DNA from: an uncultured Candidatus Saccharibacteria bacterium
GTDB taxonomy: Bacteria; Patescibacteriota; Minisyncoccia; Phycocordibacterales; Phycocordibacteraceae
Length of the DNA: 64,000 bases
Direction of reading: 5' to 3'
Assembly (NCBI GenBank): GCA_964652615.1
Contig: CAZZAT010000001.1
Coordinates: forward strand, 8,070-72,069
Numbering within the stretch: the stretch's first letter is position 1; every line of letters begins with the position of its first letter. Below, in pieces: positions 11,521 to 52,631 of the stretch. The notes below the pieces were generated by a model. It saw only the letters and a list, made by a program, of their open reading frames with translations, was not told where the DNA came from and did not search any database. A program made the translations under genes and the position numbers.

Positions 11521-11952
11521 TTAGCCTTTCAGGTTGAGCGGAGTTTGTACCTCGTCAATTGGTACCTTAAACAAATCTCTGCTTTCTAGCCTTATTTGAG
11601 CACCTCCAACAAGAGCTGCTAGTAGAAAAGAGGCAATAGCCCATCTCATCGCATTGCGCGAATTTTCCCTCGCCTCTTGTAGTTCAAGGTAGTCTATGTA
11701 CGTTGATGCTCCAGAGCCGGAAAGAAAATATCTGTGTTCTCCGTCTCCTTTGTGGTGCGAACCTAGATGAGCGATCAAGGGAGGGTCTCCTTGGATTTCT
11801 CCCATCATGAATCGCTGAATCCAAGTCCACTCCTCATCATCATTAGCGCATGCCGCTTGAAGCTCGCTCATGGTAAAACCAACCGACCCGCGGTCAGACG
11901 CCCACTTAAGGACACGAGTGAATAAGTATTTATCCTTTGAATTGTTGCGCAT
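11521..11952 (-). CDS. Hypothetical protein with C-terminal TM segment (143 aa)
   Basis: ORF only; hydrophobic stretch AIASFLLAALVGGAQI near the C-terminus. Confidence 0.4.
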   Translation of the reverse strand: MRNNSKDKYLFTRVLKWASDRGSVGFTMSELQAACANDDEEWTWIQRFMMGEIQGDPPLIAHLGSHHKGDGEHRYFLSGSGASTYIDYLELQEARENSRNAMRWAIASFLLAALVGGAQIRLESRDLFKVPIDEVQTPLNLKG

Positions 11953-11980
11953 GATTATTTGGAGCGATACTAAAACCTTA

Positions 11981-12319
11981 CTACTTGTTGAGTAGCTCTG
12001 CTGCCTTCCCGAATATTTTATCTATTCCTACGGTTAGGTTTTTTATAAGATAAGGAAACCAGCCAAAAACACATGTACTCACGATGAGTAGAAGAAGCAG
12101 ATCAATGAAACTCGCCTCGTCTCCTAAAACAAGCAAAGGAATACGTACTGAAATCAAGTAATAAAGTACGCTCCCTCCTATAAGAAACCCAGCAAAATGA
12201 TTTAGGCGTTCGTTGATTTTATGTACCGTCGTCCCTTCTTTTTGTGCGGCTTCATACTTCAACATTCCGAGCATTAAACTCGCACCGAGAATAATTAACC
12301 AAATGAATGAGTCGTTCAT
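11981..12319 (-). CDS. Small integral membrane protein (112 aa)
   Basis: Three hydrophobic segments; no motif recognised. Confidence 0.4.
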   Translation of the reverse strand: MNDSFIWLIILGASLMLGMLKYEAAQKEGTTVHKINERLNHFAGFLIGGSVLYYLISVRIPLLVLGDEASFIDLLLLLIVSTCVFGWFPYLIKNLTVGIDKIFGKAAELLNK

Positions 12320-12379
12320 GTAAATTATTCTGTGCTTATATCGAAGAATTGCAACTGGCTGACATCCTAGAACTCGAAC

Positions 12380-12832
12380 CTACCTCTTCACTAACCCCAG
12401 AAGCTCCTTTCTCCGCACGAAAACCAACACTAAGCTCGACACCCATACTAGGCATGCCGCCACAAAAAGTCCTCCACCATCGTTATTTGGATCAGTTCCA
12501 AGTGGTGTAAAGAGGTGAAAGAATACCGCTCCGGTCATAATGCCAAATGCAAGAAGAGCACCAAAACCCTGAAGCTTGCGTAGTGCAGGAATGATACCAA
12601 GCAGAAGAAGTGCCGAGGCAACCAATTCTACAGAACCAATGACATAGGGACTAAAGAGACCACTTGATGAGAAGAGTCCAGGAGTTCCAAGCGTGCCCGC
12701 CCAGTCATTTAAGATGCCGAAGATGTTCTCGGTATTTGGATGATTCGTAAACTTAAAACGAAGAGAGTCTACGAACACTGCGGCAATGAAGAGTGCAAGT
12801 GCATGCGGGATATACGAGAGGATTCTTTTCAT
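12380..12832 (-). CDS. DoxX-family membrane protein (putative)
   Basis: Four-TM, 150 aa protein with DoxX-like hydrophobicity and Gly-rich loops. Family assignment is by resemblance only. Confidence 0.45.
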   Translation of the reverse strand: MKRILSYIPHALALFIAAVFVDSLRFKFTNHPNTENIFGILNDWAGTLGTPGLFSSSGLFSPYVIGSVELVASALLLLGIIPALRKLQGFGALLAFGIMTGAVFFHLFTPLGTDPNNDGGGLFVAACLVWVSSLVLVFVRRKELLGLVKR

Positions 12833-15304: not shown

Positions 15305-16198
15305 TCAATTCCCTTCGTATGCAGCCCTCAATGCTACTACATCAAACTTCTTCATCTGAAGAAAAGCCTTCGTAACGCGAGCAACCTGTTCTTTGCTTCC
15401 CGTACGCATCATTTCGTCCATTTCCTTTGGCACTATCTGCCACGAGACGCCGTACTCGTCTTTAAGCCACCCGCACTGCTCCGCTTCTGGCACGGCTGAA
15501 AGCGCAGTCCAGTACCTATCAATCTCTTCTTGTGAGTCGCAGCGCACAATGAGCGACAGTGCTTCGGTAAACGTGAACTGATGCGAGAGCCCGCTATCAA
15601 GCGCCATGAAAGTGTGTCCAAAAAGAGTAAACTCTCCGTGCTTTATTGTTCCCACAGGATCCTTCTCGCTGTCGCCTTCTTCGTACCTGGCAGTGAAGGT
15701 AATGGCAGAGTCAGGAAAGAGCGAGGTGTATTTCTGCATCGCTTCTTCAGCTTTTCCGTGCACCGCTCCCGTGAACATAAACGAAGGAGAGACGCGATCT
15801 TTGACCATACTTTGGTCCTTAAAGAAGTTTAATTGCCACGAAACGCCATAACGGTCGTTGAGCCACACATACTTTGCTTCCCATGGATACCATTGAAGAG
15901 GCATGAGTGCCGTGCCTCCCTCAAGAAGCGTTGCTGCAAGACGGTCTATCTCCTCCTCTGAAACACACTGATATGAAAGAGAAATAGCAGGCGTGAAAGA
16001 AAAGAGAGGTCCTGCACTTATCGCATCAATCTGGTACCCCTGAATACTAAACGATACGACATCTACCGAACCTGAAGGAGTATCGGTGAGCACCGAGCTT
16101 TGAAGGATGTTTGAGTCTCCCCCAAAGAGAGACGTGTAGAAAGCGGCGGCTTCTTTTGCTTCTTTGTTGAACCAGAGGTGGGGGACTATTTTTTGCAT
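15305..16198 (-). CDS. VOC-superfamily protein with tandem PhnB-like domains
   Basis: N-terminus MQKIVPHLWFNKEAKEAAAFYTSLF is repeated later as LFPDSAITF...; this glyoxalase/PhnB-like signature is duplicated in one polypeptide. Confidence 0.55.
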   Translation of the reverse strand: MQKIVPHLWFNKEAKEAAAFYTSLFGGDSNILQSSVLTDTPSGSVDVVSFSIQGYQIDAISAGPLFSFTPAISLSYQCVSEEEIDRLAATLLEGGTALMPLQWYPWEAKYVWLNDRYGVSWQLNFFKDQSMVKDRVSPSFMFTGAVHGKAEEAMQKYTSLFPDSAITFTARYEEGDSEKDPVGTIKHGEFTLFGHTFMALDSGLSHQFTFTEALSLIVRCDSQEEIDRYWTALSAVPEAEQCGWLKDEYGVSWQIVPKEMDEMMRTGSKEQVARVTKAFLQMKKFDVVALRAAYEGN

Positions 16199-27409: not shown

Positions 27410-28999
27410 ATGAAGCACCCTACCCCTGAAGGGATAGCGCTTGTTGAGAAGGCCTATGCGTTTGCAAAAGAAGCGCACAAGAACCATACGCGGTATTCGG
27501 GCGAACCATACTTCATACACCCTGCAGCAGCTGCAAAAATACTGGCAGAGCTTGGCATGGACGCGCCAACGATTGCTGCAGGACTGCTTCATGATGCCAT
27601 TGAAGATACCGATACAACCGAAGAGGCAGTAAAGGAGGCCTTTGGCGCTGAAGTCCTATTTCTCGTCGAGGGCGTGACAAAGCTCGGGAAGCACAAGTAT
27701 CACGGCGCTGAACGCCATGCAGAGAGCTTGCGCCGCCTCTTGGTTGCAACCTCCTCTGATGTGCGCGTCCTCATCATCAAGCTCGCTGACCGCTACCACA
27801 ACATGACGACCATTGAGCACGTGCCTTCCGAAAAGCGCCGCCGTATCGCACTTGAAACGCTTGAGATATACGCGCCTTTGGCAGACCGCCTTGGTATGGG
27901 ACGCATGAAGAAAGACCTTGAAGATCTTGCCTTTCCTGCAGTTGATCCAGACGCCTATTCGCACGCTGTTGAAGTGCGAAAGCTAAAGACAAAAGAAACG
28001 GAGGAAGGACTTAAAAAGGTGCAGCGAGAACTTCAGAAAGAACTTGCAAAGAAGGGGCTGCGCGACTTCCAGACCTCGATACGCATGAAAGGATACTGGA
28101 GCCTTCACCAGAAGCTGCGGCGCAAGGGAGATGATATCGATGCAATACACGATATTGCTGCACTTCGCGTTATCGTAAAATCCATTGACGACTGCTATAC
28201 GGTGCTTGGCGTTATTCACGCGAAGTTTCGACCCTTACCTGGCGAGTTCAAGGACTATATCGCCTTCCCAAAGCCAAACGGCTACCAGTCACTGCATACC
28301 ACCGTGCTTTCCGAAGAAGCAGGCGTGGTTGAAATGCAGGTGCGCACCGAGGAGATGCATCGGCGCGCACAGTTTGGTATCGCCTCACACATGTCGTATA
28401 AGCAGATAGGGCATAAGGTTGCTGCGCGCGGCAAAGACGAGCAGAGAAATGCATTTGAGATGCTCTCTCTTTCATGGATACGAGATCTCGTACCTACCCT
28501 GCTTAATTTCACCAAACCAGCAGCCGCTGAAAAACAATTGTCTCCAAAACAAAAGAAACAAAAGGTTGATACGGCGCCGCGCTGGCTCGCCGAGCTTGCA
28601 GATGTACACACCTCAATGACCGAGTCCTCTGAATTTGTAGAACGCTTGAAAGAGGATTTCTTCTCACATCGCGTCTTCGTGTTTACGCCAAAGGGCGATG
28701 TTATTGACCTCCCTATTCATTCAACACCTATAGACTTCGCGTATGCGATACACAGCGACCTTGGAAACCGTATGCAGGGCGTGAAGGTGAATAAGAAGAT
28801 GGTTGCCTTTGATACGCCGCTTCGAAACGGCGACATTGTTGAAATCATGACGCGAGATGCTGCTCGCCCTACCCAAAAATGGCTTGACATGGCAAAGACC
28901 ACTATGGCGCGAAGGCACATCCGCGCAGCACTTGATGTTGCTGCCGTTGTTCCGGCAAAAGCTGATAGCCGAAAGACGCGTAAGAAGAAGGCTAAGTAG
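27410..28999 (+). CDS. Bifunctional (p)ppGpp synthetase/hydrolase RelA/SpoT
   Basis: HD domain HPAAAAKILAELGMD...LLHDAIEDT, synthetase domain, and TGS/ACT C-terminus. Start at MKHPTPEG with AAGGAGG at -11; the track ORF adds 122 aa of read-through. Confidence 0.85.
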   Translation: MKHPTPEGIALVEKAYAFAKEAHKNHTRYSGEPYFIHPAAAAKILAELGMDAPTIAAGLLHDAIEDTDTTEEAVKEAFGAEVLFLVEGVTKLGKHKYHGAERHAESLRRLLVATSSDVRVLIIKLADRYHNMTTIEHVPSEKRRRIALETLEIYAPLADRLGMGRMKKDLEDLAFPAVDPDAYSHAVEVRKLKTKETEEGLKKVQRELQKELAKKGLRDFQTSIRMKGYWSLHQKLRRKGDDIDAIHDIAALRVIVKSIDDCYTVLGVIHAKFRPLPGEFKDYIAFPKPNGYQSLHTTVLSEEAGVVEMQVRTEEMHRRAQFGIASHMSYKQIGHKVAARGKDEQRNAFEMLSLSWIRDLVPTLLNFTKPAAAEKQLSPKQKKQKVDTAPRWLAELADVHTSMTESSEFVERLKEDFFSHRVFVFTPKGDVIDLPIHSTPIDFAYAIHSDLGNRMQGVKVNKKMVAFDTPLRNGDIVEIMTRDAARPTQKWLDMAKTTMARRHIRAALDVAAVVPAKADSRKTRKKKAK

Positions 29000-29941
29000 C
29001 TAAACGCTAAAGTTCTTTACTGAATAAAGGTCTTCTTCGGCAGGCGCATCGCTTGTGGTATCGATACCGGTTGCTTCTTCAAGTTTTTCCTCTGCTTCTG
29101 CTGTCTTTGCGCTAGCTTCTGCAGCAAGAGCAGCAACAATGTTTGAGAGGTCTTCAGGAGAGAAGAATTCAATAAGGACACGACCGCCGTTTGGCCTATT
29201 CTCAATTAAGACGCGGGTGCCAAGCGTTTCGGTAAGCGACTTCTCGATATCCATCATCTCCGGAGTCTTGTCGTGCTTTCGAATCTTATCCTGCGCAATG
29301 CGGCGTACCATCTGCTCCACATGGCGCACTGTAGTCTTTTTAAGAAGAATTTCCTTAAACAAGGTCTCTTGTTCCTGTGGACGGTCCGAAAGCATAAGGA
29401 GAGCTCTCGCGTGTCCTTCGGTAAGCTCCTTCCCTACAACCGCATTTTGTACCGCTTCAGGAAGCAGAAGGAGGCGTATTGAGTTTGAGACGAACTCACG
29501 GCTTCTGCCCACCTTTGCCGCTACCTCGGAGTGAGAGAGGCCGAATTCATCAACGAGCTGTTTCAAAGATTTTGCACGATCGATGGCGTTCAGGTCTTCA
29601 CGCTGAAGGTTTTCGATAAGTGCGAGCTCAAGCTTGGTGCGATCATCTGCAACTTCTTGGCGAATGACGACAGGAACAGTCTTAAGACCGATAAGTTTTG
29701 AAGCGCGCAAGCGGCGCTCACCGGCAATAAGTTCATACGAGCTTCCAAGACCTCCGTCTGCTCGTTCAACATCCTTGCGCGTGACGACAAGCGGCTGCAA
29801 GACGCCGTACTGGCGTATCGATTCAGCAAGAGCTTTCAGTGCCTCTTCGTTAAACTCTCTTCGGGGCTGGTACGGGTTCGGTACTATCTTCTCTACTTCG
29901 ACCCAGTACACCGAGTCGTATTTTGTCGTGTCATTCTGCAT
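29000..29941 (-). CDS. parB: Chromosome partitioning protein ParB/Spo0J
   Basis: ParB box VVEVEKIVPNPYQPRREFNEEALKALAESIRQYGVLQPLVV and HTH. No parA next to it. Confidence 0.8.
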   Translation of the reverse strand: MQNDTTKYDSVYWVEVEKIVPNPYQPRREFNEEALKALAESIRQYGVLQPLVVTRKDVERADGGLGSSYELIAGERRLRASKLIGLKTVPVVIRQEVADDRTKLELALIENLQREDLNAIDRAKSLKQLVDEFGLSHSEVAAKVGRSREFVSNSIRLLLLPEAVQNAVVGKELTEGHARALLMLSDRPQEQETLFKEILLKKTTVRHVEQMVRRIAQDKIRKHDKTPEMMDIEKSLTETLGTRVLIENRPNGGRVLIEFFSPEDLSNIVAALAAEASAKTAEAEEKLEEATGIDTTSDAPAEEDLYSVKNFSV

Positions 29942-30042
29942 GATGCGGGCATTTTACCACGCGCTGTTTAAGTTGTAGGAATCAGGGGGGTGAAAACTTG
30001 TGTATGTAGTGTTAATATCCCACTTGCTGGGGAAGGTACAAT

Positions 30043-30128
30043 GCCGCGGTGATGAAATTGGTAGACATAGGGGTCTCAAAATCCCCTGCTGGAAACGGCG
30101 TGCGGGTTCGAGTCCCGCCTGCGGCACC
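30043..30128 (+). tRNA. tRNA-Leu (anticodon CAA), class II with long variable arm
   Basis: Acceptor GCCGCGG/CUGCGGC, D-arm with AAUUGGUAGAC, anticodon loop CUCAAAA (CAA), variable arm GCUGGAAACGGCGU, T-arm GCGGG-UUCGAGU-CCCGC, discriminator A, and CC encoded. Confidence 0.8.
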
Positions 30129-30129
30129 T

Positions 30130-30705
30130 ATTGAATCTGAAAGAGCCGAGAGGCTTGCGTATATAGTTGGAGTTGCTCTCGGCGATGGAAATCTTTCTTG
30201 TCCAAACGGCAGGGCCACGCGTCTGCGAATTACTTGTGATACAAAATATCCAAGACTTGGAAGGGAGATTAGAAAATCACTATTGTTCCTTCTACCTCGC
30301 AACAAAGTCTCTATCGTTTTAAGAAACGGATCCAATTGTTTTGATATCAGCGTATATTCGAATCAATTGAATCTATGGATGCCATGGCGAGTGGGTCTTG
30401 GATCAAAAATAAAGCAAAAAGCACGCGTCCCTGCATGGGTATGGACCAGCCCGTTATATATGAAAGCGTGCTTAAAGGGCCTTATACAAACAGATGGTTG
30501 TATATATGTAGACCGCGGGTATCCAATGATTAACTTCACAAATCACTGTCGTGAATTGGCGGAAGATGTAAGAGACATGTTACTTCAACTCAATTTTAGA
30601 GCTTCATTCATGCAGTTTCGCGTATCTACTGGCATACGCTATACCGTCAAGATTGCTCGAGAGACAGCTAGATTCAAACGTGAGTTGCGTCTATACAAGG
30701 CATAA
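30130..30705 (+). CDS. Double-motif LAGLIDADG homing endonuclease
   Basis: Two LAGLIDADG motifs, LAYIVGVALGDGNL and LKGLIQTDGCIYV, about 100 aa apart. The frame is continuous with the 3' end of tRNA-Leu, and the only in-frame ATG (30049) lies inside the tRNA D-arm. Confidence 0.7.
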   Translation: MESERAERLAYIVGVALGDGNLSCPNGRATRLRITCDTKYPRLGREIRKSLLFLLPRNKVSIVLRNGSNCFDISVYSNQLNLWMPWRVGLGSKIKQKARVPAWVWTSPLYMKACLKGLIQTDGCIYVDRGYPMINFTNHCRELAEDVRDMLLQLNFRASFMQFRVSTGIRYTVKIARETARFKRELRLYKA

Positions 30706-30775
30706 ACATTGATTTGACTCTCCCCTCTCCCCAAAGTAGAGTCCTTCTCGGACTCATAACAGAGGAGAGTTCTTA

Positions 30776-31474
30776 ATGTCAGGTACAGACACTTGGATGG
30801 TGCGCGCCCACGAGCGTGCAGCAGAGCTTGAGCGTCGCGGTGCTTATTGGCGCCATGACGGAAATCCTAAGCGCCCCTATGTGCGTCTTCGTTCAGGCCT
30901 CATTTCAGATGGCTACTTCAATGGGGGCGTCATTTCGGAAAGTCCTGCCCTTGTGCAATTTATCGCCCGCGAACTCGTGCAGGAATTTGTAGAGCGCAGA
31001 GGCATGACTAAGGTGCCAAACCGAATCATTGGTCCTGCTATGGGCGCAATTACGTTCGCGCACGAAATCGCATCGCAACTTGATGCGTACTTCATGCTCG
31101 ACGGCAACGTGCGCATGTCGTTTGCGGAAAAAGAAGGCGATAGGTTTGCTTTCAAACGCAACCCGCCGCGCGATGGTGAGCGATTCCTCTTTGTCGAGGA
31201 TACGATAACAACTGCAGGCAGTGTGAACAAAGTTATCGATGCTACGGTCGCCTGTGTACACGGGCACGAGCGTGAGCCGTATCTCATTGTTCTCTGCAAC
31301 CGAACAGGCGAATACGAGCTGTCCGACGGAACTGAAATCGTCTCATACGTTGAGGGCGACTTCCGCACGTGGAAGGAGGGCGAAAACCCCTTCACTCCTG
31401 ACGGAAAAGAGCTCGTTGCTGTTGTTGAGAATGCTAAAGAGAATTGGCAGCTCTTGACCAAAGACTATACCTAA
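30776..31474 (+). CDS. pyrE: Orotate phosphoribosyltransferase-like (type I PRTase)
   Basis: PRPP-binding motif FLFVEDTITTAGSV and an N-terminal LRSGLISDGYFN hood region. Confidence 0.6.
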   Translation: MSGTDTWMVRAHERAAELERRGAYWRHDGNPKRPYVRLRSGLISDGYFNGGVISESPALVQFIARELVQEFVERRGMTKVPNRIIGPAMGAITFAHEIASQLDAYFMLDGNVRMSFAEKEGDRFAFKRNPPRDGERFLFVEDTITTAGSVNKVIDATVACVHGHEREPYLIVLCNRTGEYELSDGTEIVSYVEGDFRTWKEGENPFTPDGKELVAVVENAKENWQLLTKDYT

Positions 31475-31512
31475 AGAAACGCCCCCGACCTATTGGCCGG
31501 GGGCGCGCTTTG

Positions 31513-32451
31513 TTATTCGTCCTTCACGATGGGAACCATCGCGTCATGGTACATGAGCGCAGCTGCTTCCACATCCGCAAGCCATGTTTCAGGATTCTTG
31601 GACGCTTCTGCAATGCCGCGGCCCACATTCACAACCCACGGCGCCTTATGATGGGCGCGCATGGCTTTCACGACGAGCTCGAGATCGCCGCCTTGTGCGC
31701 CCACGCCAGGAATGAGGAAAGGTGCTTTTGACGCCATGAAGGAAAGGTTCTCGAGCATTGTAGTGTTCGTTGCTCCGACGACGAGGCCGTGGCCCATGAG
31801 TTGAGCTTTGGAACCAACATAGTCGGAAAGCAATGTGTCGTTTCCAACCAGAAGCGATTGAAGCTCGTTAGCGCCTTCATTTGAAGTCCGCCCGAGCACA
31901 AAGCAGTCGATGTCGAGCTTGTTGAATTCTCTCGTCACGTCCGCGATACCCATGTACGGATTAACTGTCACGATATCTGCGCCGAGTTTCTTCGCAAATT
32001 CTGCAGAGCGCTTCGAAGTATTGCCGATGTCGCCGTACTTCCGGTCGAGGATAATAACCGCATCCGGAAAGTCGGAACGCGCGCGTTCAATGAGCGCCTT
32101 CAAGGAAACGAGAAGTTCGAAGTTGTATTCCAGGGTACACCAGAATTCGAAATTAAACTTGAACGCCGCAGCGTAGCGGCCAGTGCGGCGAATGACGCTG
32201 CCCATATACGGAATCGCATAGTCGGCGTCGCTTATGAGACGGTCGGAGAGACCGTAGCCTTGCGAGCCGTTGATGACGGTTCTTGCATGCGAGAAGTCGG
32301 GATCAAGCCCGACGCACAGATGCCTGCCTGCCTTATTCGCGGCCGCAAGCTTTTCAAACCCTTTTCCCATGTGCTGTTCTCCTAAAAGGACTACCGTGTC
32401 CGCCCCCGATACTACGGCAAAGCTCTCAATTGTGCTAGCCTTGATGCCCAT
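31513..32451 (-). CDS. pyrF: Orotidine 5'-phosphate decarboxylase (long type 2)
   Basis: LCVGLDPD and ILDRKYGDIGNT (the DxKxxDIxNT motif). Start at MGIKAST (32451); the track ORF adds 103 aa overlapping miaA. Confidence 0.7.
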   Translation of the reverse strand: MGIKASTIESFAVVSGADTVVLLGEQHMGKGFEKLAAANKAGRHLCVGLDPDFSHARTVINGSQGYGLSDRLISDADYAIPYMGSVIRRTGRYAAAFKFNFEFWCTLEYNFELLVSLKALIERARSDFPDAVIILDRKYGDIGNTSKRSAEFAKKLGADIVTVNPYMGIADVTREFNKLDIDCFVLGRTSNEGANELQSLLVGNDTLLSDYVGSKAQLMGHGLVVGATNTTMLENLSFMASKAPFLIPGVGAQGGDLELVVKAMRAHHKAPWVVNVGRGIAEASKNPETWLADVEAAALMYHDAMVPIVKDE

Positions 32452-33277
32452 GAAGGAGAAGCTCAAAATCCTCTGTATCGCAGGACCCACCGCCTCCGGG
32501 AAGACGGCGCGTGCGGTTTTACGCGCAAAGGAACGTAACGGAGAAATTATCTCTGTTGATTCAAGGCAAGTGTACGAGATGCTTGATATCGGCAGCGAAA
32601 AGATATCTCCCGAAGAGATGCAAGGAGTCCCCCACCACCTCATTGGTTTTAAGGACCCCAGAGAGGCATATAGCGCAGGCGACTTCGTGCAGGACGCTTC
32701 ACGGCTCATCAAGGAGATATCCTCACGCGGCAAGCTCCCTATCCTTGCCGGGGGCACGCATTTCTATTTCGATGCTCTCTTGCACGGCCTCCCCCCAGAA
32801 TCTCCGGACGATCCTGTACTTCGAAAAGAATTTGAGAAGCTCTCAACCGAAGAATTGTTTGCCCGTATCAAAGCAAAAGATCCACGACGTGCAGAGACGC
32901 TTGATCCGCACAACCGCCGCCGCCTCATACGCGCCCTCGAGCTCGTATACACGCATGGTAGTGTCCCGCTTCGATCTCCGAAGGAGGAATACGACGTCAC
33001 ATGGGAAATACTCCTTCCAGAACGGGAGGAACTTCGACAGCGCATCAAGGAGCGCGAAGCATTGAAGTTCCCTCGCGGGCTCATAGACGAAGTGCGCCGC
33101 GTGCGTGCGTACGTAGGAGACGAGCGCCTTAATGAGCTCGGCCTTGAGTATCGAATTGTGGGCGAATACTTACGAGGAGAACGAAGTGAAGAATCGATGC
33201 TTCCTGCGCTTAATGCAAAACTCTTTCAGTACGCACGAAGACAGGAGGCGTGGCTACGGAAGTTGCAAAAAGGTTAG
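32450..33277 (+). CDS. miaA: tRNA dimethylallyltransferase
   Basis: ILCIAGPTASGKT P-loop and DSRQVY motif. Start at MKEKLKIL (32450) or MPMKEK (32444), divergently overlapping the pyrF start. Confidence 0.8.
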   Translation: MKEKLKILCIAGPTASGKTARAVLRAKERNGEIISVDSRQVYEMLDIGSEKISPEEMQGVPHHLIGFKDPREAYSAGDFVQDASRLIKEISSRGKLPILAGGTHFYFDALLHGLPPESPDDPVLRKEFEKLSTEELFARIKAKDPRRAETLDPHNRRRLIRALELVYTHGSVPLRSPKEEYDVTWEILLPEREELRQRIKEREALKFPRGLIDEVRRVRAYVGDERLNELGLEYRIVGEYLRGERSEESMLPALNAKLFQYARRQEAWLRKLQKG

Positions 33278-49139: not shown

Positions 49140-49538
49140 ATGTCCCTTGATAGAACTGCTGCTTTTCGAGCGAAGGTTGTCTCGGCAAAGGAAAAAGAAG
49201 CGGAGGAGCGTAATGCTCAGGAAGCAGCTAGGGATGCGGAACTCGAACAACTACGAGCCCAGCATCCCGAAGTCGTCGCCCTTTTAAAAAGCGACGACGG
49301 GTGGTTCTGGCCACGCCCCCATGAACCTCTCCCGGAGAAAAAGGCTCCTGCAGGATGCTTCTTTCTCCTCGGAGGCTGGTACGATAATCAAGATGGTCGT
49401 GGTTCTGGCAGAACCTTCTGGAAGCTCAAAGTCGTTGATGCTTCCGTTCGCGAAGTCATCGATAAGATAATAAAGCTTGAGAATACTGGCATGACCAGAA
49501 CAACAGATGACATCTCGAAAGTCAGATTCTTCGGTTAG
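49140..49538 (+). CDS. Hypothetical protein (132 aa), N-terminal K/E/A-rich helix
   Basis: ORF downstream of motif copy d; no motif recognised. Confidence 0.45.
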   Translation: MSLDRTAAFRAKVVSAKEKEAEERNAQEAARDAELEQLRAQHPEVVALLKSDDGWFWPRPHEPLPEKKAPAGCFFLLGGWYDNQDGRGSGRTFWKLKVVDASVREVIDKIIKLENTGMTRTTDDISKVRFFG

Positions 49539-49597
49539 TTCGTCATCCCATCCTTACCTTAGAGAAAGCTGGAATTGTTTCCGGCTTTCATTTTATG

Positions 49598-49624
49598 CTG
49601 GCTGTCTGGGACGATTATGGAACA
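49598..49624 (+). promoter_or_regulatory. Copy e of recurrent motif (GCTGGCTGTCTGGGACGATTATGGAAC)
   Basis: Overlaps the stop codon region of the minus-strand HEPN-like gene. It is oriented so that a transcript from it would be antisense to that gene. Confidence 0.4.
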
Positions 49625-50133
49625 TCTTTATCTACGGATTTGGAGCGTAGTTCTGCAATACTTTGAGCTAGCACCTCGTCGGTAATTCCGTACTTCATTC
49701 GCACAGGTTTGAAGAGTTCCTCAAGTAGCGAGTCAGCATAGCGGAATATCTCTGTTATTTCGTCTAACTCGGCAATCATTCTTGCCCTTCCTTCCGATGA
49801 ATTAAAGTAAATGACTCTGTCTCGGAAATAGTGGTGTATAAGCCAATTCCGTTTTTCAAGCGCATAAGATAGGGATTCAGATAGATTTGGCGGTATGGCA
49901 GTTATGTCTTCCAGTATGGAAATCATCTTTCCTAAAGTACGTTTAGATTGTTCTTCCGTATAAGAATCAAAAAGTGCTTCCCATTCTTTTGTTTCTAGAT
50001 TTCCACGCTTTTTCGGTAATAAGTCTAGATAGATAAGCGCACCTATTAACTCTTGTTCAAGGCATTGAGCACCATAAGCAGCGAGACCGAATCTTGCATA
50101 TACCTCTCTGACCTCCTCTTCTTCGGGAGACAT
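49615..50133 (-). CDS. HEPN-motif protein (172 aa), putative
   Basis: All-helical ORF containing EKRNWLIHHYF, which fits the HEPN Rx4-6H motif (R-N-W-L-I-H). No partner nucleotidyltransferase gene is visible. Confidence 0.4.
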   Translation of the reverse strand: MSPEEEEVREVYARFGLAAYGAQCLEQELIGALIYLDLLPKKRGNLETKEWEALFDSYTEEQSKRTLGKMISILEDITAIPPNLSESLSYALEKRNWLIHHYFRDRVIYFNSSEGRARMIAELDEITEIFRYADSLLEELFKPVRMKYGITDEVLAQSIAELRSKSVDKDVP

Positions 50134-50162
50134 AAAAATTTCCCACCTCCTAGGATTTAACC

Positions 50163-52631
50163 CTACAGCGCCACCATCGATGCAATGCTATCTCCTTCGC
50201 GCATCTTCATGATGCGAACTCCTTGCGTAGCTCTTGAGAGCGATGGAATTTCTCCGGTTGAGGTGCGGATAACCTGCCCTTTCTTTGAAATGACGACGAT
50301 TTCTTCCGTCTCTTCTTCTTTACCGATAAGGACTTTGGCACCGATGATTTCTCCGGTCTTTGCGGTTACTTCAGCAGTCTTTATGCCAGAACCACCTCTT
50401 CCCTGTACTTTGTATTCTGAAAGCTCGGTCTTTTTGCCGTAGCCCTTGCTCATGATGACGAGCAAAGCACCGTCCTTTGCGGAAGCCGGTACTACTTCTG
50501 CAGATACGACGCTGTCGCCTTTTTTCACCGTCATGCCGCGCACGCCTCCCGCAGTGCGGCCCATGGCGCGCACATCTCCCTCATCAAAGCGAATCGACTG
50601 ACCCTTTTCGGTGACGATAGAAACACTGTCGCCTTCTTGTGAAAGGTGCGCAGACACAAGCTTGTCCTTGCCTTTCAAAGAAATTGCGATGATGCCTGAG
50701 CGGCGCACGTCTGCAAAGTTCTTTGCTTCCACTTTCTTTACGACACCCTCTGCGGTAACGAAGAAGACCGAGGTTGCGGCAAGTTCTGCGCCTTTAGGCA
50801 CTGCCAAGACGCTCGTTACTTTCTCTTCGCCTGCAAGCGGCAGGAAGTTCATGATGCTCTTTCCTTTGGTTGCACGCTTTCCTTCTGGTATCTCGTACAT
50901 CTTTGTCTGGTATGCCTTACCAAAATCAGTAAAGAAGAGAAGGTTGTCATGCGATGAAGCTGCAAGGAAGTGCGTTACGACATCTTCTTCCTTTGTCGAC
51001 ATATCGATAACGCCCACGCCTCCACGCTTTTGCGCTTTATATTCTGAAGGGTTGGTGCGCTTTACATAGCCGCCTGCCGTAATCACAAGGACGCTCTCCT
51101 CGTCAGGTACAAGGTCTTCGATTGAAATATTCTTCACGCCGCCTTTCACTATTTTTGTTCGACGGTCATCTCCGTATTTTTCAGAAAGCTCGTTCAACTC
51201 GTCTTTGACGACGGCAAGGATGTTCTTTGCAGAGGAGAGAATCTTCTTAAGCTTCTCGATGAGTTTCTGAATTTCGCTAAGCTCATCTTCAATTTTCTTG
51301 CGTTCAAGGCCTGCAAGAGTTTGAAGGCGCATCGCAAGAATAGCTGCGGTTTGGCGCTCGGAGAACTTAAACTTCTTCTGGAGCTCAAGATCTGCGGTTG
51401 GTACATCTTTTGCCTTCTTGATGATAGCGATGACCTCATCGATATGGTCGAGCGCTTTTGAAAGGCCGAGCAAGATATGCTCGCGCTCTTCTGCTTTTCG
51501 CAGATCGTATTCGGTTCGCTTCTTAACCACATCACGACGGTGCGCGACAAAACTCTCTAGGATACCCTTCAAAGAAAGGGTCTCTGGTACGCCATCAACC
51601 AGCGCGAGCATGTTGTAGTGGAAGGTGCTTTCAAGCTCGGTGTGCTTGTAGAGTGCATTCAAGACTGCTTGTGGGTGCGCGGTTCCTTTGAGTTCAACGA
51701 CGACGCGTATGTCTTCAGCAGATTCATCGCGAAGATCTTTAATGCCTTCAAGACGCTTGTCGCGCACCAAGTCTGCAATCTTTTCTATCAAGGTGGCTTT
51801 GTTCGCGCGAAATGGAATCGAGGTGATGATTATCGAAGATCCCTTCTTATCCTCCACAATTTCCGCAACGCCTCTACATACCACACCACCCTTGCCGGAA
51901 GCGTATGCGTGCTTAATGTCTGCTTGATTGAACGCAATGCCGCCAAGCGGAAAGTCAGGGCCCTTCACGAACTCAAGGAGGTCTTCGGTTGTTGCTTCCT
52001 CATTATCAATAAGGTGGATCGTTGCGGCGACTACCTCGCGCAAGTTGTGCGGAGGAATGTTGGTCGCCATACCAACCGCAATGCCGAGCGTACCGTTTAA
52101 AAGAAGGTTCGGTGCTGCGGCGGGCATTACTCTTGGTTCCTTGAGAGTGCCGTCATAGTTTGGATTCCAATCAACCGTTTCTTTTTCAAGATCGGTAAGC
52201 ATGGATGCTCCGATGCGCGACATCTTTGCTTCGGTATAGCGCATAGCTGCAGGCGGGTCACCATCAACTGAACCGAAGTTTCCCTGCCCTATGACAAGCG
52301 GGTAGCGCGTGGTGAAGTCTTGCGCGAGCTTAACCATAGCGTCATACACTGCAACGTCGCCGTGCGGATGGTACTTACCGAGCACCTCGCCCACTACCGT
52401 TGCAGACTTCTTGGTCTTTGAAGCAGGACCAAGACCTATCTCCCCCATCGCGTAGAGGATGCGGCGATGCACTGGCTTCATGCCGTCTCGCACATCTGGG
52501 AGCGCACGATCGGTAATAACCGACATGGCATAGTCGATAAACGAAGTGCGCATCTCATCCGTAATGGACTGCGCAATGACATTTGCAGCCGTCTGCGGCA
52601 CTACTTCTGCTTCCGGTTCCTTCTTTGCCAT
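50163..52631 (-). CDS. gyrA: DNA gyrase subunit A
   Basis: N-terminal ...[32 protein letters not shown], active-site Tyr region, and C-terminal beta-pinwheel repeats. Confidence 0.9.

Follow-up and report, generated by a model that had tools for sequence, protein, structure and literature searches.

We analysed a 64,000-nucleotide (nt) stretch of DNA from an uncultured Candidatus Saccharibacteria bacterium (GenBank assembly GCA_964652615.1, contig CAZZAT010000001.1, positions 8,070 to 72,069), here called the window, in which an intact gene for the leucine transfer RNA (tRNA) with anticodon CAA is followed on the same strand by a LAGLIDADG endonuclease gene that has no canonical start codon of its own. 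The explanation we favour, at somewhat better than an even chance, is that this endonuclease gene is a free-standing homing gene of the I-DmoI type, resident at tRNA-Leu(CAA) and translated from a start codon that lies inside the tRNA gene. What sets the feature apart is that a LAGLIDADG gene of the free-standing homing type has a niche specific to one tRNA and an unusual translation start, probably embedded in that tRNA.

The locus had been flagged in a first-pass annotation, made from the sequence alone, as an intact tRNA-Leu(CAA) followed by an open reading frame (ORF) with two LAGLIDADG motifs, and ARAGORN, Rfam and Pfam all agree; the ORF follows 3 nt past the tRNA discriminator base. Both ARAGORN, which draws the tRNA boundaries at 30043-30128, and Infernal recover what a functional tRNA-Leu(CAA) should have: a long variable arm, a CAA anticodon and an intact acceptor stem. 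CCA is not encoded, since the bases after discriminator A30126 are CCT. The variable-arm stem shows compensatory substitutions among close relatives, which argues that the tRNA is still under selection and remains functional. The endonuclease frame is open from 30016 to the TAA stop at 30703-30705 and is closed just upstream by a TAA at 30013; the ORF listing gives it as 30049..30705, 218 amino acids (aa) from a GTG start. As the annotation had said, no ATG, GTG or TTG stands between the tRNA end and the first motif, where the sole near-cognate codon is ATT at 30130, and the ORF is co-linear and in frame with the tRNA body. It had misplaced the in-frame ATG at 30049: that codon is GTG and the ATG follows at 30052. 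Two further in-frame candidate starts within the tRNA are TTG at 30058 and GTG at 30100, the latter being the codon that one public gene caller picked as the start of protein P0001.

Comparison with relatives shifted the weight of evidence towards a start inside the tRNA. The window gene belongs to a clade defined by the tRNA acceptor stem GCCGCGG, for which DNA was available at 17 loci (the window, L001, L003, L005, L074 and L161-L172; L numbers designate loci), with about eight more members available as proteins only. ATG, GTG and TTG were absent between the tRNA and motif 1 in all 17 (0 of 17). At the column of the old start codon five loci have ATT, five ATA and two ATC; L161 has GTT, L162 has CAA after an inserted TTA, and the remaining three junctions hold no near-cognate start (CCA AAG GAA.. 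in L170, CCA TAT TCA.. in L171, CTA ACA CAT.. in L172). The junction residue at the protein level is I, V, L, P, T or H, with in-frame indels. The endonuclease ORFs of the clade are under purifying selection: the pairwise ratio of nonsynonymous to synonymous change (pN/pS) is 0.25-0.35 at saturated synonymous divergence (pS 0.73-0.94), and this includes the pair L161-L162 with its GTT and TTA junctions.

Because these ORFs are intact, selected and without a start, we infer that the genes are translated and that, in at least several of them, translation starts upstream of the junction; with the frame closed just upstream, at TAA 30013 in the window, such a start would lie inside or before the tRNA gene. 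A sister clade (L002, L004, L006, L008 and L016) has an ATG exactly 3 nt past the discriminator, in frame and open through the tRNA. The loss of this ATG would have been tolerated in the window clade because the frame was already open through the tRNA, as it is in the sister clade, and the former start codon would then have drifted as an ordinary hydrophobic sense codon.

Sixteen of the 17 clade loci carry a -10-like hexamer 6-8 nt before an in-frame start whose frame is open into the endonuclease, in one of three architectures. In type A (eight loci: the window, L163, L164, L165, L166, L168, L074 and L170) the hexamer abuts the tRNA 5' end and a GTG lies 6 nt downstream of it, at tRNA position 7; the hexamers are TACAAT (four loci), TAGAAT, TAAAAT, TATACT and CAAAAT, with A2 and T6 invariant and the rest of the leader variable. 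Type B (L001, L167, L172, L161, L162 and L005) has an extended -10 (TGnTAnnnT) at -34/-35 and, after 7-8 nt, a GTG or TTG at -21, so placed that the transcription start of the tRNA promoter itself would coincide with the in-frame start codon. In type B' (L169 and L171) a D-loop shorter by 1 nt goes with a start codon at -13 instead of -21; the shift brings the start back into frame, in effect a compensatory change. Under a looser criterion the same hexamer/start geometry was found in 19 of 66 and 5 of 22 controls. In an unbiased set, 9 of 12 loci without their own start were open through the tRNA with an upstream in-frame start, against 13 of 42 loci with their own start, a fraction near the one-third expected by chance (Fisher p = 0.009, uncorrected for phylogeny). 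The nine open startless loci include members of other lineages (L031, L039/L070 and L077).

From these patterns we propose the following course of events. Homing-type, double-strand-break-driven or recombinational spread, directed at a target in or at the tRNA-Leu(CAA) gene, would have put the endonuclease gene between the tRNA gene and miaA in a minority of the lineages. The window clade would then have lost the post-tRNA ATG, leaving ATT 30130 in the window, and with the ORF in frame and open through the tRNA, translation would most likely begin inside the tRNA gene. The TACAAT at 30037-30042 would start a transcript at about 30049, and its 5'-terminal GUG or AUG (30049/30052) would be read as a leaderless start. 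The predicted product has 218 aa, the first ~27 of which would come from tRNA positions 7-84 as a disordered tail; in a structural model of this product the tRNA-encoded tail is disordered (predicted local distance difference test, pLDDT, 40-59) and the nuclease core is unchanged. Peptides predicted from the read-through product are LVDIGVSK, SPAGNGVR, VRVPPAAPIESER and VPPAAPIESER. The full pre-tRNA would be made from a second promoter ~25 nt further upstream, for which the likely candidate is a block at 29991-30018 that is kept in the window, L163, L164, L165, L166, L168 and L074 amid varying surroundings. It contains an extended -10 (TGT-TAATAT) at 30010-30018 with a -35-like GTGAAA 17 nt further upstream, and transcription from it would start near 30025.

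Starts of this kind would not be out of character for the family or the organism. Across the family no member has a Shine-Dalgarno sequence before the endonuclease gene. In ~45 loci an ATG, GTG or TTG start lies 1-10 nt past the discriminator, sometimes overlapping the encoded CCA as 'CCATG'. This implies an mRNA that is co-transcribed with the tRNA and is nearly leaderless after 3' processing, since a 5' end could be placed only at the tRNA 3' processing site. Members with longer spacers, or lying upstream of the tRNA, have a TATAAT-like box 5-8 nt before the start (for example GGTATAAT-N6/7-ATG); an own -10 box 6-8 nt before the start predicts a leaderless mRNA directly. The window as a whole also appears to come from an organism that relies heavily on leaderless mRNAs: in 18 of its 52 long ORFs the start codon is preceded, at 6-8 nt, by a -10-like hexamer, mostly TATACT (background 3.8% per candidate start; examples at 16198 (-), 8989 (-), 4036 (-), 41941 (+) and 34452 (-)), and just 16 of 52 have a Shine-Dalgarno-like motif.

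Several considerations weigh against a start inside the tRNA. Twelve of the 17 clade loci came to light through gene calls, a source biased towards in-frame cases, and L003 lacks the hexamer/start geometry, the only clade member to do so. Since the clade members are related, the count of 16 of 17 amounts to about three architectures and not to 16 independent events. Hexamers resembling a -10 box are common beside tRNA 5' ends in AT-rich relatives (13 of 66 controls), and for the window taken alone the geometry would arise by chance with a probability of ~10-15%. A strict sigma-70 consensus scan called neither TACAAT nor the block at 29991-30018 as a promoter, because neither has a good -35; the consensus promoter and terminator scan was uninformative for the tRNA-endonuclease region and flagged only a promoter-like site before pyrE. 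An ATH codon (ATT, ATA or ATC) is kept at the old start column in 12 of the 17 clade loci, which fits weak near-cognate initiation. Finally, both the transcription start and the initiation codon are deduced from motifs only.

The retained ATH codon is the heart of the main alternative, which we regard as unlikely. It accepts the same gene, family and niche and takes the near-cognate ATT 30130 as the start, on a tRNA-mRNA co-transcript or on a processed 3' trailer with a leader of 0-3 nt, much like mitochondrial tRNA punctuation; the weak codon would keep a potentially toxic nuclease low, and the in-frame relation to the tRNA would be an accident of ancestry. In its favour, ATT 30130 aligns exactly with the ATG start of ~190-aa relatives, the ATT, ATA or ATC codons of the 12 loci stand always 3 nt past the discriminator, and the sister clade has its ATG at the same offset. 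Initiation on a processed trailer is moreover the family norm, most members starting 1-10 nt past the tRNA, and miaA uses the same position in loci that lack the endonuclease. Five clade loci nevertheless have no near-cognate junction codon and yet have intact, selected ORFs (L161 with GTT, L162 with TTA CAA, L170, L171 and L172), and in other database proteins that column holds P, T, H or L. The exchange among Ile, Val and Leu, the use of all three Ile codons and the in-frame indels form the pattern of sense-codon substitution, and ATG has never been regained in the 17 clade loci with DNA or the ~8 protein-only members. Leaderless initiation, besides, normally requires AUG, GUG or UUG. A variant of this idea that we had entertained, a conserved non-canonical ATT or ATA start on an RNase Z-processed trailer, was downgraded in view of the GTT, TTA, CCA and CTA junctions in selected ORFs. 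Published sets of leaderless transcripts hold only AUG, GUG and UUG starts (PMC3848588).

The tie between the endonuclease and tRNA-Leu(CAA) extends to the whole family. Peptide patterns from the protein core retrieved 80 genomic loci, of which 71 have tRNA-Leu(CAA) directly upstream on the same strand. Five apparent exceptions also adjoin this tRNA: the endonuclease gene lies ahead of the tRNA in L023, L057 and L075, with 3-9 nt between its end and the tRNA 5' end; L052 has the pair in divergent and L072 in convergent orientation. The other four (L024, L035, L036 and L061) are cut by contig ends, and L061 still shows the tRNA 3' end. Thus the endonuclease gene adjoins tRNA-Leu(CAA) in 76 of the 76 loci with enough flank, in four relative arrangements, a juxtaposition far beyond chance. 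Adjacency in all four arrangements suggests that the element's target is the tRNA gene or its flank, which would then be more than a convenient promoter. The first-pass annotation had taken the gene for an atypical free-standing copy: free-standing it is, and what looked like an atypical single copy is a member of a conserved family. In L007 and L008 the tRNA-Leu(CAA) was called by ARAGORN and missed by the Rfam gathering scan, probably through filter loss.

Residence inside another element was not found. An Rfam E-value scan of 28500-32500 and a gathering scan of the whole window returned tRNAs only, with no group I intron and no rRNA, in line with the annotation's remark that the tRNA has no intron and that no rRNA lies nearby. 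The gene sits in neither a self-splicing intron nor an intein; with no Rfam intron and no host protein ORF, it falls into the free-standing class.

Endonuclease-bearing loci share a recurring gene order, relA(+) - parB(-) <> tRNA-Leu(CAA)(+) - endonuclease(+) - miaA(+). In 58 of 81 endonuclease-bearing loci the opposite strand carries a parB homologue no more than ~1.5 kb upstream, and 69 have one anywhere in the flank. In 35-37 filled loci the endonuclease gene is followed by miaA, at a median distance of 101 nt; in the window pyrE and pyrF are inserted before miaA. To sample orthologous loci independently of the endonuclease, we searched metagenome contigs with a ParB profile. This yielded 31 loci of the candidate phyla radiation (CPR) type, ~20 of them with tRNA-Leu(CAA) beside parB, and a family member in only one (L111). 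At least seven empty sites have miaA following the tRNA within 15-70 nt of the alignment start. The miaA start codon is visible 3-7 nt past the discriminator in L081, L085, L090, L095 and L098 (junctions, with a slash after the discriminator, A/CTAC ATG in L081, A/CCC ATG in L095 and A/CAA GTG in L098), and 3-20 nt after the tRNA in empty sites overall. L081 comes from a close relative of the window organism without the endonuclease gene (ParB 70%, RelA 70% and MiaA 64% identical).

The ancestral locus is relA-parB<>tRNA-Leu(CAA)-miaA, as read from gene order, with presence or absence of the endonuclease polymorphic at one defined site. Because orthologous loci exist without it, the gene is a dispensable insertion between tRNA-Leu(CAA) and miaA. 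The annotation had suggested a mobile insertion between parB and pyrE, with the exact site to be sought in endonuclease-free relatives; those relatives place it at the tRNA-Leu(CAA)/miaA junction, so the mobile origin is upheld by empty loci, low GC content and footprints in relatives, and pyrE as a boundary is not, pyrE and pyrF being a secondary addition in the window. Nor is the insertion recent in the window lineage, clade members being ~60-70% identical with saturated synonymous sites. The tRNA and miaA appear to be an ancestral unit of a tRNA and its modification enzyme, in which miaA has the same tRNA-abutting start without a Shine-Dalgarno sequence. With A36-A37-A38, the tRNA resembles a substrate of MiaA. 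In L165, L168, L169 and L170 miaA starts 12-24 nt past the endonuclease stop with no obvious Shine-Dalgarno sequence or promoter, a spacing that suggests translational coupling or re-initiation.

Relatives also retain what look like footprints of lateral acquisition. At L060:3863-3975, behind an intact resident tRNA, the endonuclease start is joined to the 3' half of a tRNA-Leu(CAA) allele of foreign origin, and in L011 and L025 partial copies of the tRNA 3' end lie ahead of the endonuclease promoter. Degenerate copies exist as well, with a frameshift in L074, an in-frame stop in L067 and a missing start in L055. The window gene has a GC content of 42.2% against 50.9 +/- 2.5% for the window, within the lowest 1% of 576-nt segments. 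Together these features point to a mobile past. A further set of structures was seen in L011, L025, L088 and L104, where the first ~60-100 nt directly downstream of the tRNA contain inverted copies of part of its 3' end (acceptor plus T-arm), interrupted by a short GC-rich hairpin. A terminator, a repair scar and a small mobile element are all conceivable readings.

Other observations fit less well with a mobile gene. Mantel correlations of endonuclease distances were 0.39 with ParB and 0.51 with RelA (ParB with RelA, 0.76), and mean divergence was 0.50 for the endonuclease against 0.46 for ParB and 0.48 for RelA. Because endonuclease distances track those of ParB and RelA, inheritance would have been mostly vertical for long stretches of time; no two endonuclease genes are unusually similar. 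No tRNA position cleanly separates endonuclease-bearing from endonuclease-free alleles, and an immunity polymorphism in the tRNA, which we had considered, was set aside, the differences looking phylogenetic. No viral relatives were found in IMG/VR contigs, on which ground we rejected a viral origin.

Specialisation on tRNA genes may reach beyond this family. The ParB sample contained, in L102, a different LAGLIDADG protein (239 aa, 28% identical to the window protein; LAGLIDADG_3 E 4.6e-5) whose ORF begins 36 nt past tRNA-Leu(CAA) with its own TATAAT-N7-ATG start. We also observed a distant second LAGLIDADG paralog, 27-29% identical, at L007:7314-7790 (-) and L008:8040-8540 (-). The L007 paralog ORF is ~268 aa long with an HTH-like (helix-turn-helix) N-terminal stretch, and its 3' end shares 15-37 nt with the 5' end of tRNA-Tyr(GTA), so that other CPR LAGLIDADG lineages also abut class II tRNA genes. 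We put forward tentatively, at a shade under an even chance, a joint reading in two parts. In one Patescibacteria clade the functional tRNA-Leu(CAA) gene would double as same-strand coding sequence, supplying the start and ~27 codons of the endonuclease, on a leaderless transcript that begins inside the tRNA in type A and at the start site of the tRNA promoter in type B; and CPR LAGLIDADG lineages would specialise on class II tRNA genes, as in the Leu(CAA) family, the tRNA-Tyr paralog of L007 and L008 and the family of L102.

Sequence and modelled fold identify the protein as a single-chain, two-domain LAGLIDADG endonuclease of the I-DmoI type. Its two motifs each end in an acidic residue and a Gly, and D19, D122 and ~35 other positions are invariant across 74 sequences. 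Pfam LAGLIDADG_3 (PF14528) matches with 37.7 bits against a cutoff of 22.5 (E 2.5e-9) and covers the second domain only. The AlphaFold2 model built with 74 homologues (pLDDT 96.5) has the alpha-beta-beta-alpha-beta-beta-alpha order of elements expected of a pseudo-dimer. By sequence, single or profile, the PDB returned no real match, only a spurious BamA, and we turned to a fold search. The best Foldseek matches were I-Tsp061I and I-DmoI (E 2e-9 to 1e-8, template modelling (TM) score ~0.7), then PI-PfuI and WhiA, with probability 1.00 for I-Tsp061I, I-DmoI and PI-PfuI. A word-indexed search gave 375 homologous proteins at 50-69% identity, and an exhaustive hidden Markov model search across 1.84 billion representatives recovered, at E <= 1e-30, just 42 clusters at 50% identity. 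Identifiable hosts are all Patescibacteria (Kaiser-, Nomura-, Taylor-, Vogel-, Niyogi-, Falkow- and Buchananbacteria, and Paceibacterota). The family is thus Patescibacteria-specific, and its sole known genomic niche is the flank of tRNA-Leu(CAA). The protein would be an active nuclease, with the site-specific, Mg-dependent DNA cleavage of its class and a target site of its own, and the gene would be mobile.

We considered it improbable that the gene is instead a domesticated host factor, either a WhiA-like regulator of tRNA-Leu/miaA or the parB region or a cellular nuclease, with selection for that role explaining its conserved position. Strong purifying selection, constant synteny and a divergence comparable to and correlated with that of ParB and RelA are all what such a role would predict, and the fold matches WhiA too (TM 0.75), as do several annotations from the Joint Genome Institute (JGI). 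Yet the gene is dispensable, being present in only ~1 in 20 orthologous loci of related organisms, and it stands in four orientations relative to the tRNA. Both catalytic Asp residues are invariant, whereas WhiA lacks them, and the WhiA N-terminal and HTH domains are absent: at 191 aa the protein gives a Pfam match to PF14528 only. Lateral-acquisition footprints, degenerate copies, the GC trough and an unrelated LAGLIDADG gene at the same site in L102 likewise speak for a mobile element. A stronger form, a near-universal, vertically inherited domesticated gene, had been suggested by synteny and the Mantel correlations; we rejected it because the gene is absent from ~90% of ParB-sampled loci. 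As to the database labels, JGI names several family proteins 'DNA-binding transcriptional regulator WhiA', and some members have faint PF14527 matches.

It is far less probable still that the window gene is a decaying, untranslated pseudogene. The missing canonical start after the tRNA and the frameshift in its close relative L074 would suit that view, but all 191 codons are intact with every family-invariant residue present, and the 16 other startless clade loci are intact despite 30-40% amino-acid divergence, at the pN/pS of 0.25-0.35 given above. An ORF inside a group I intron or other intervening sequence, or a start lost to an assembly artefact, we consider the least probable of all, a very remote chance: a permissive Rfam search found no intron in 28500-32500, the tRNA is uninterrupted with the ORF 3 nt behind it, and the sequencing or assembly error that the annotation had allowed for is excluded because 17 independently assembled clade loci and ~8 database protein N-termini share the junction.

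The features of the locus are collected in Table 1. In the spacer before the pyrE-like gene the hairpin is weakly supported, with a fold z-score of only -2.1. The miaA ORF is listed from 32270, and its probable start is M59 or M61, near 32444. Elsewhere in the window, low-GC islands at 11800-12500 and 49400-50150 (~41% against 51%) hold small hypothetical ORFs, the second adjoining gyrA (50163-52631).

Table 1. Features of the tRNA-Leu(CAA)-endonuclease locus, in window coordinates.
Feature	Position	Strand	Remarks
parB	29000-29941	-	Pfam ParB_N, HTH_ParB, ParB_C; divergent neighbour, conserved synteny anchor
Conserved upstream block GTGAAAAC...TGTTAATAT	29991-30018	+	Putative tRNA promoter
-10-like hexamer TACAAT	30037-30042	+	Abuts tRNA 5' end; 6 nt to GTG 30049, 9 nt to ATG 30052; putative internal promoter
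tRNA-Leu(CAA), class II, intact cloverleaf	30043-30126	+	Rfam RF00005 (Infernal) 49.6 bits, E 8e-9; discriminator A30126
In-frame GTG 30049 and ATG 30052 in tRNA D-arm	30049-30054	+	Favoured candidate starts; predicted product 218 or 217 aa
CCT in place of CCA, then ATT GAA TCT...	30127-30132	+	ATT 30130 is the alignment column of the relatives' ATG start
LAGLIDADG endonuclease core, 191 aa plus TAA stop	30130-30705	+	Begins 3 nt past tRNA discriminator
LAGLIDADG motif 1 LAYIVGVALGDGN	30154-30192	+	Catalytic Asp codon 30184-30186 (D19), ...VALGDGN
LAGLIDADG motif 2 CLKGLIQTDGCIY	30469-30507	+	Catalytic Asp codon 30493-30495 (D122), ...LIQTDGC
Spacer between endonuclease and pyrE-like genes	30706-30775	+	Promoter-like site TTGACT-17-TAGAGT (30714-30742), hairpin, GGAGAG Shine-Dalgarno for pyrE-like gene
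pyrE-like phosphoribosyltransferase gene	30776-31474		Neighbour downstream of endonuclease gene
miaA	32444-33277	+	TIGR00174 E 3.6e-58; displaced by endonuclease gene, pyrE and pyrF

If our explanation is right, free-standing LAGLIDADG homing endonucleases have a new niche in CPR bacteria, alongside one particular tRNA gene of the chromosome, and the window gene would be a selfish gene without any expression signal of its own, parasitising a tRNA gene for both transcription and start codon. A functional tRNA gene would then be dual-coding, and tRNA-abutting, leaderless starts without Shine-Dalgarno sequences, a position that miaA shares, would be a regular design in reduced genomes. Gene callers would mis-annotate such genes, with arbitrary tRNA-derived N-termini and 'WhiA' labels. 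In the public records P0001-P0119 we observed N-termini of that sort, such as 'MKLVDIGVSKSPAGNGVRVRVPPAAP...' or, read from GTG 30100, 'MRVRVPPAAP...'. The family would also supply meganuclease scaffolds that are compact (~190 aa) and highly conserved and whose natural target region can be predicted. Full-text literature searches turned up neither an account of LAGLIDADG genes beside tRNA genes in CPR bacteria nor any case of an ORF that runs through a tRNA gene, or of a bacterial ORF whose 5' coding region is a functional tRNA gene.

Parallels for parts of this arrangement exist in several systems. The free-standing Seg and Mob endonuclease genes of T-even phages, such as SegB in the T4 tRNA cluster, encode GIY-YIG or HNH enzymes and have their own expression signals. 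Like them, the window gene is an intron-less, sporadically distributed gene in a short spacer between conserved genes, with a presumed target in the adjacent gene; unlike them, it encodes a LAGLIDADG enzyme on a cellular chromosome, has no phage copies in IMG/VR and would borrow the transcription of the tRNA. In mitochondria, endonuclease ORFs, whether in introns or free-standing, can be fused in frame to an upstream exon or gene, as in the yeast bI4/aI4 type and the Allomyces atp6-ORF360. These too have no start of their own and extend the upstream gene in frame, and the donor's upstream piece is co-transferred, as in L060; the upstream gene there is protein-coding, whereas here a functional tRNA gene would be read as codons. 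Mitochondrial tRNA punctuation and bacterial tRNA-mRNA co-transcripts, for example the E. coli thrU-tufB operon, place an mRNA immediately 3' of a tRNA and set its 5' end by processing, much as we propose for most family members and for miaA at empty sites. Punctuation alone cannot supply a start codon in the window clade, because the post-tRNA start is gone.

Among proteins of similar architecture, WhiA shares the LAGLIDADG scaffold (TM 0.75 to 8dy9_I) and differs in length (~310 aa against 191 aa), in having an N-terminal domain and a C-terminal HTH that the window protein lacks, and in the catalytic Asp residues, which the window protein retains. The archaeal rRNA-intron enzymes I-DmoI and I-Tsp061I are closer, each a single chain of ~190 aa with two motifs bearing catalytic Asp and a two-domain fold, yet they are only ~20% identical to the window protein, whose gene lies outside any intron and beside a bacterial tRNA gene. 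The CPR LAGLIDADG enzymes described so far sit inside insertion sequences or introns of 16S and 23S rRNA genes, in an account that never mentions tRNA (J Bacteriol 2024, PMC11270868). The window family shares with these rRNA-insertion enzymes (PMC11270868) the host group, the superfamily and a presumed homing to highly conserved RNA genes, and is set apart from them as a separate, tight family of free-standing genes that abut tRNA-Leu(CAA).

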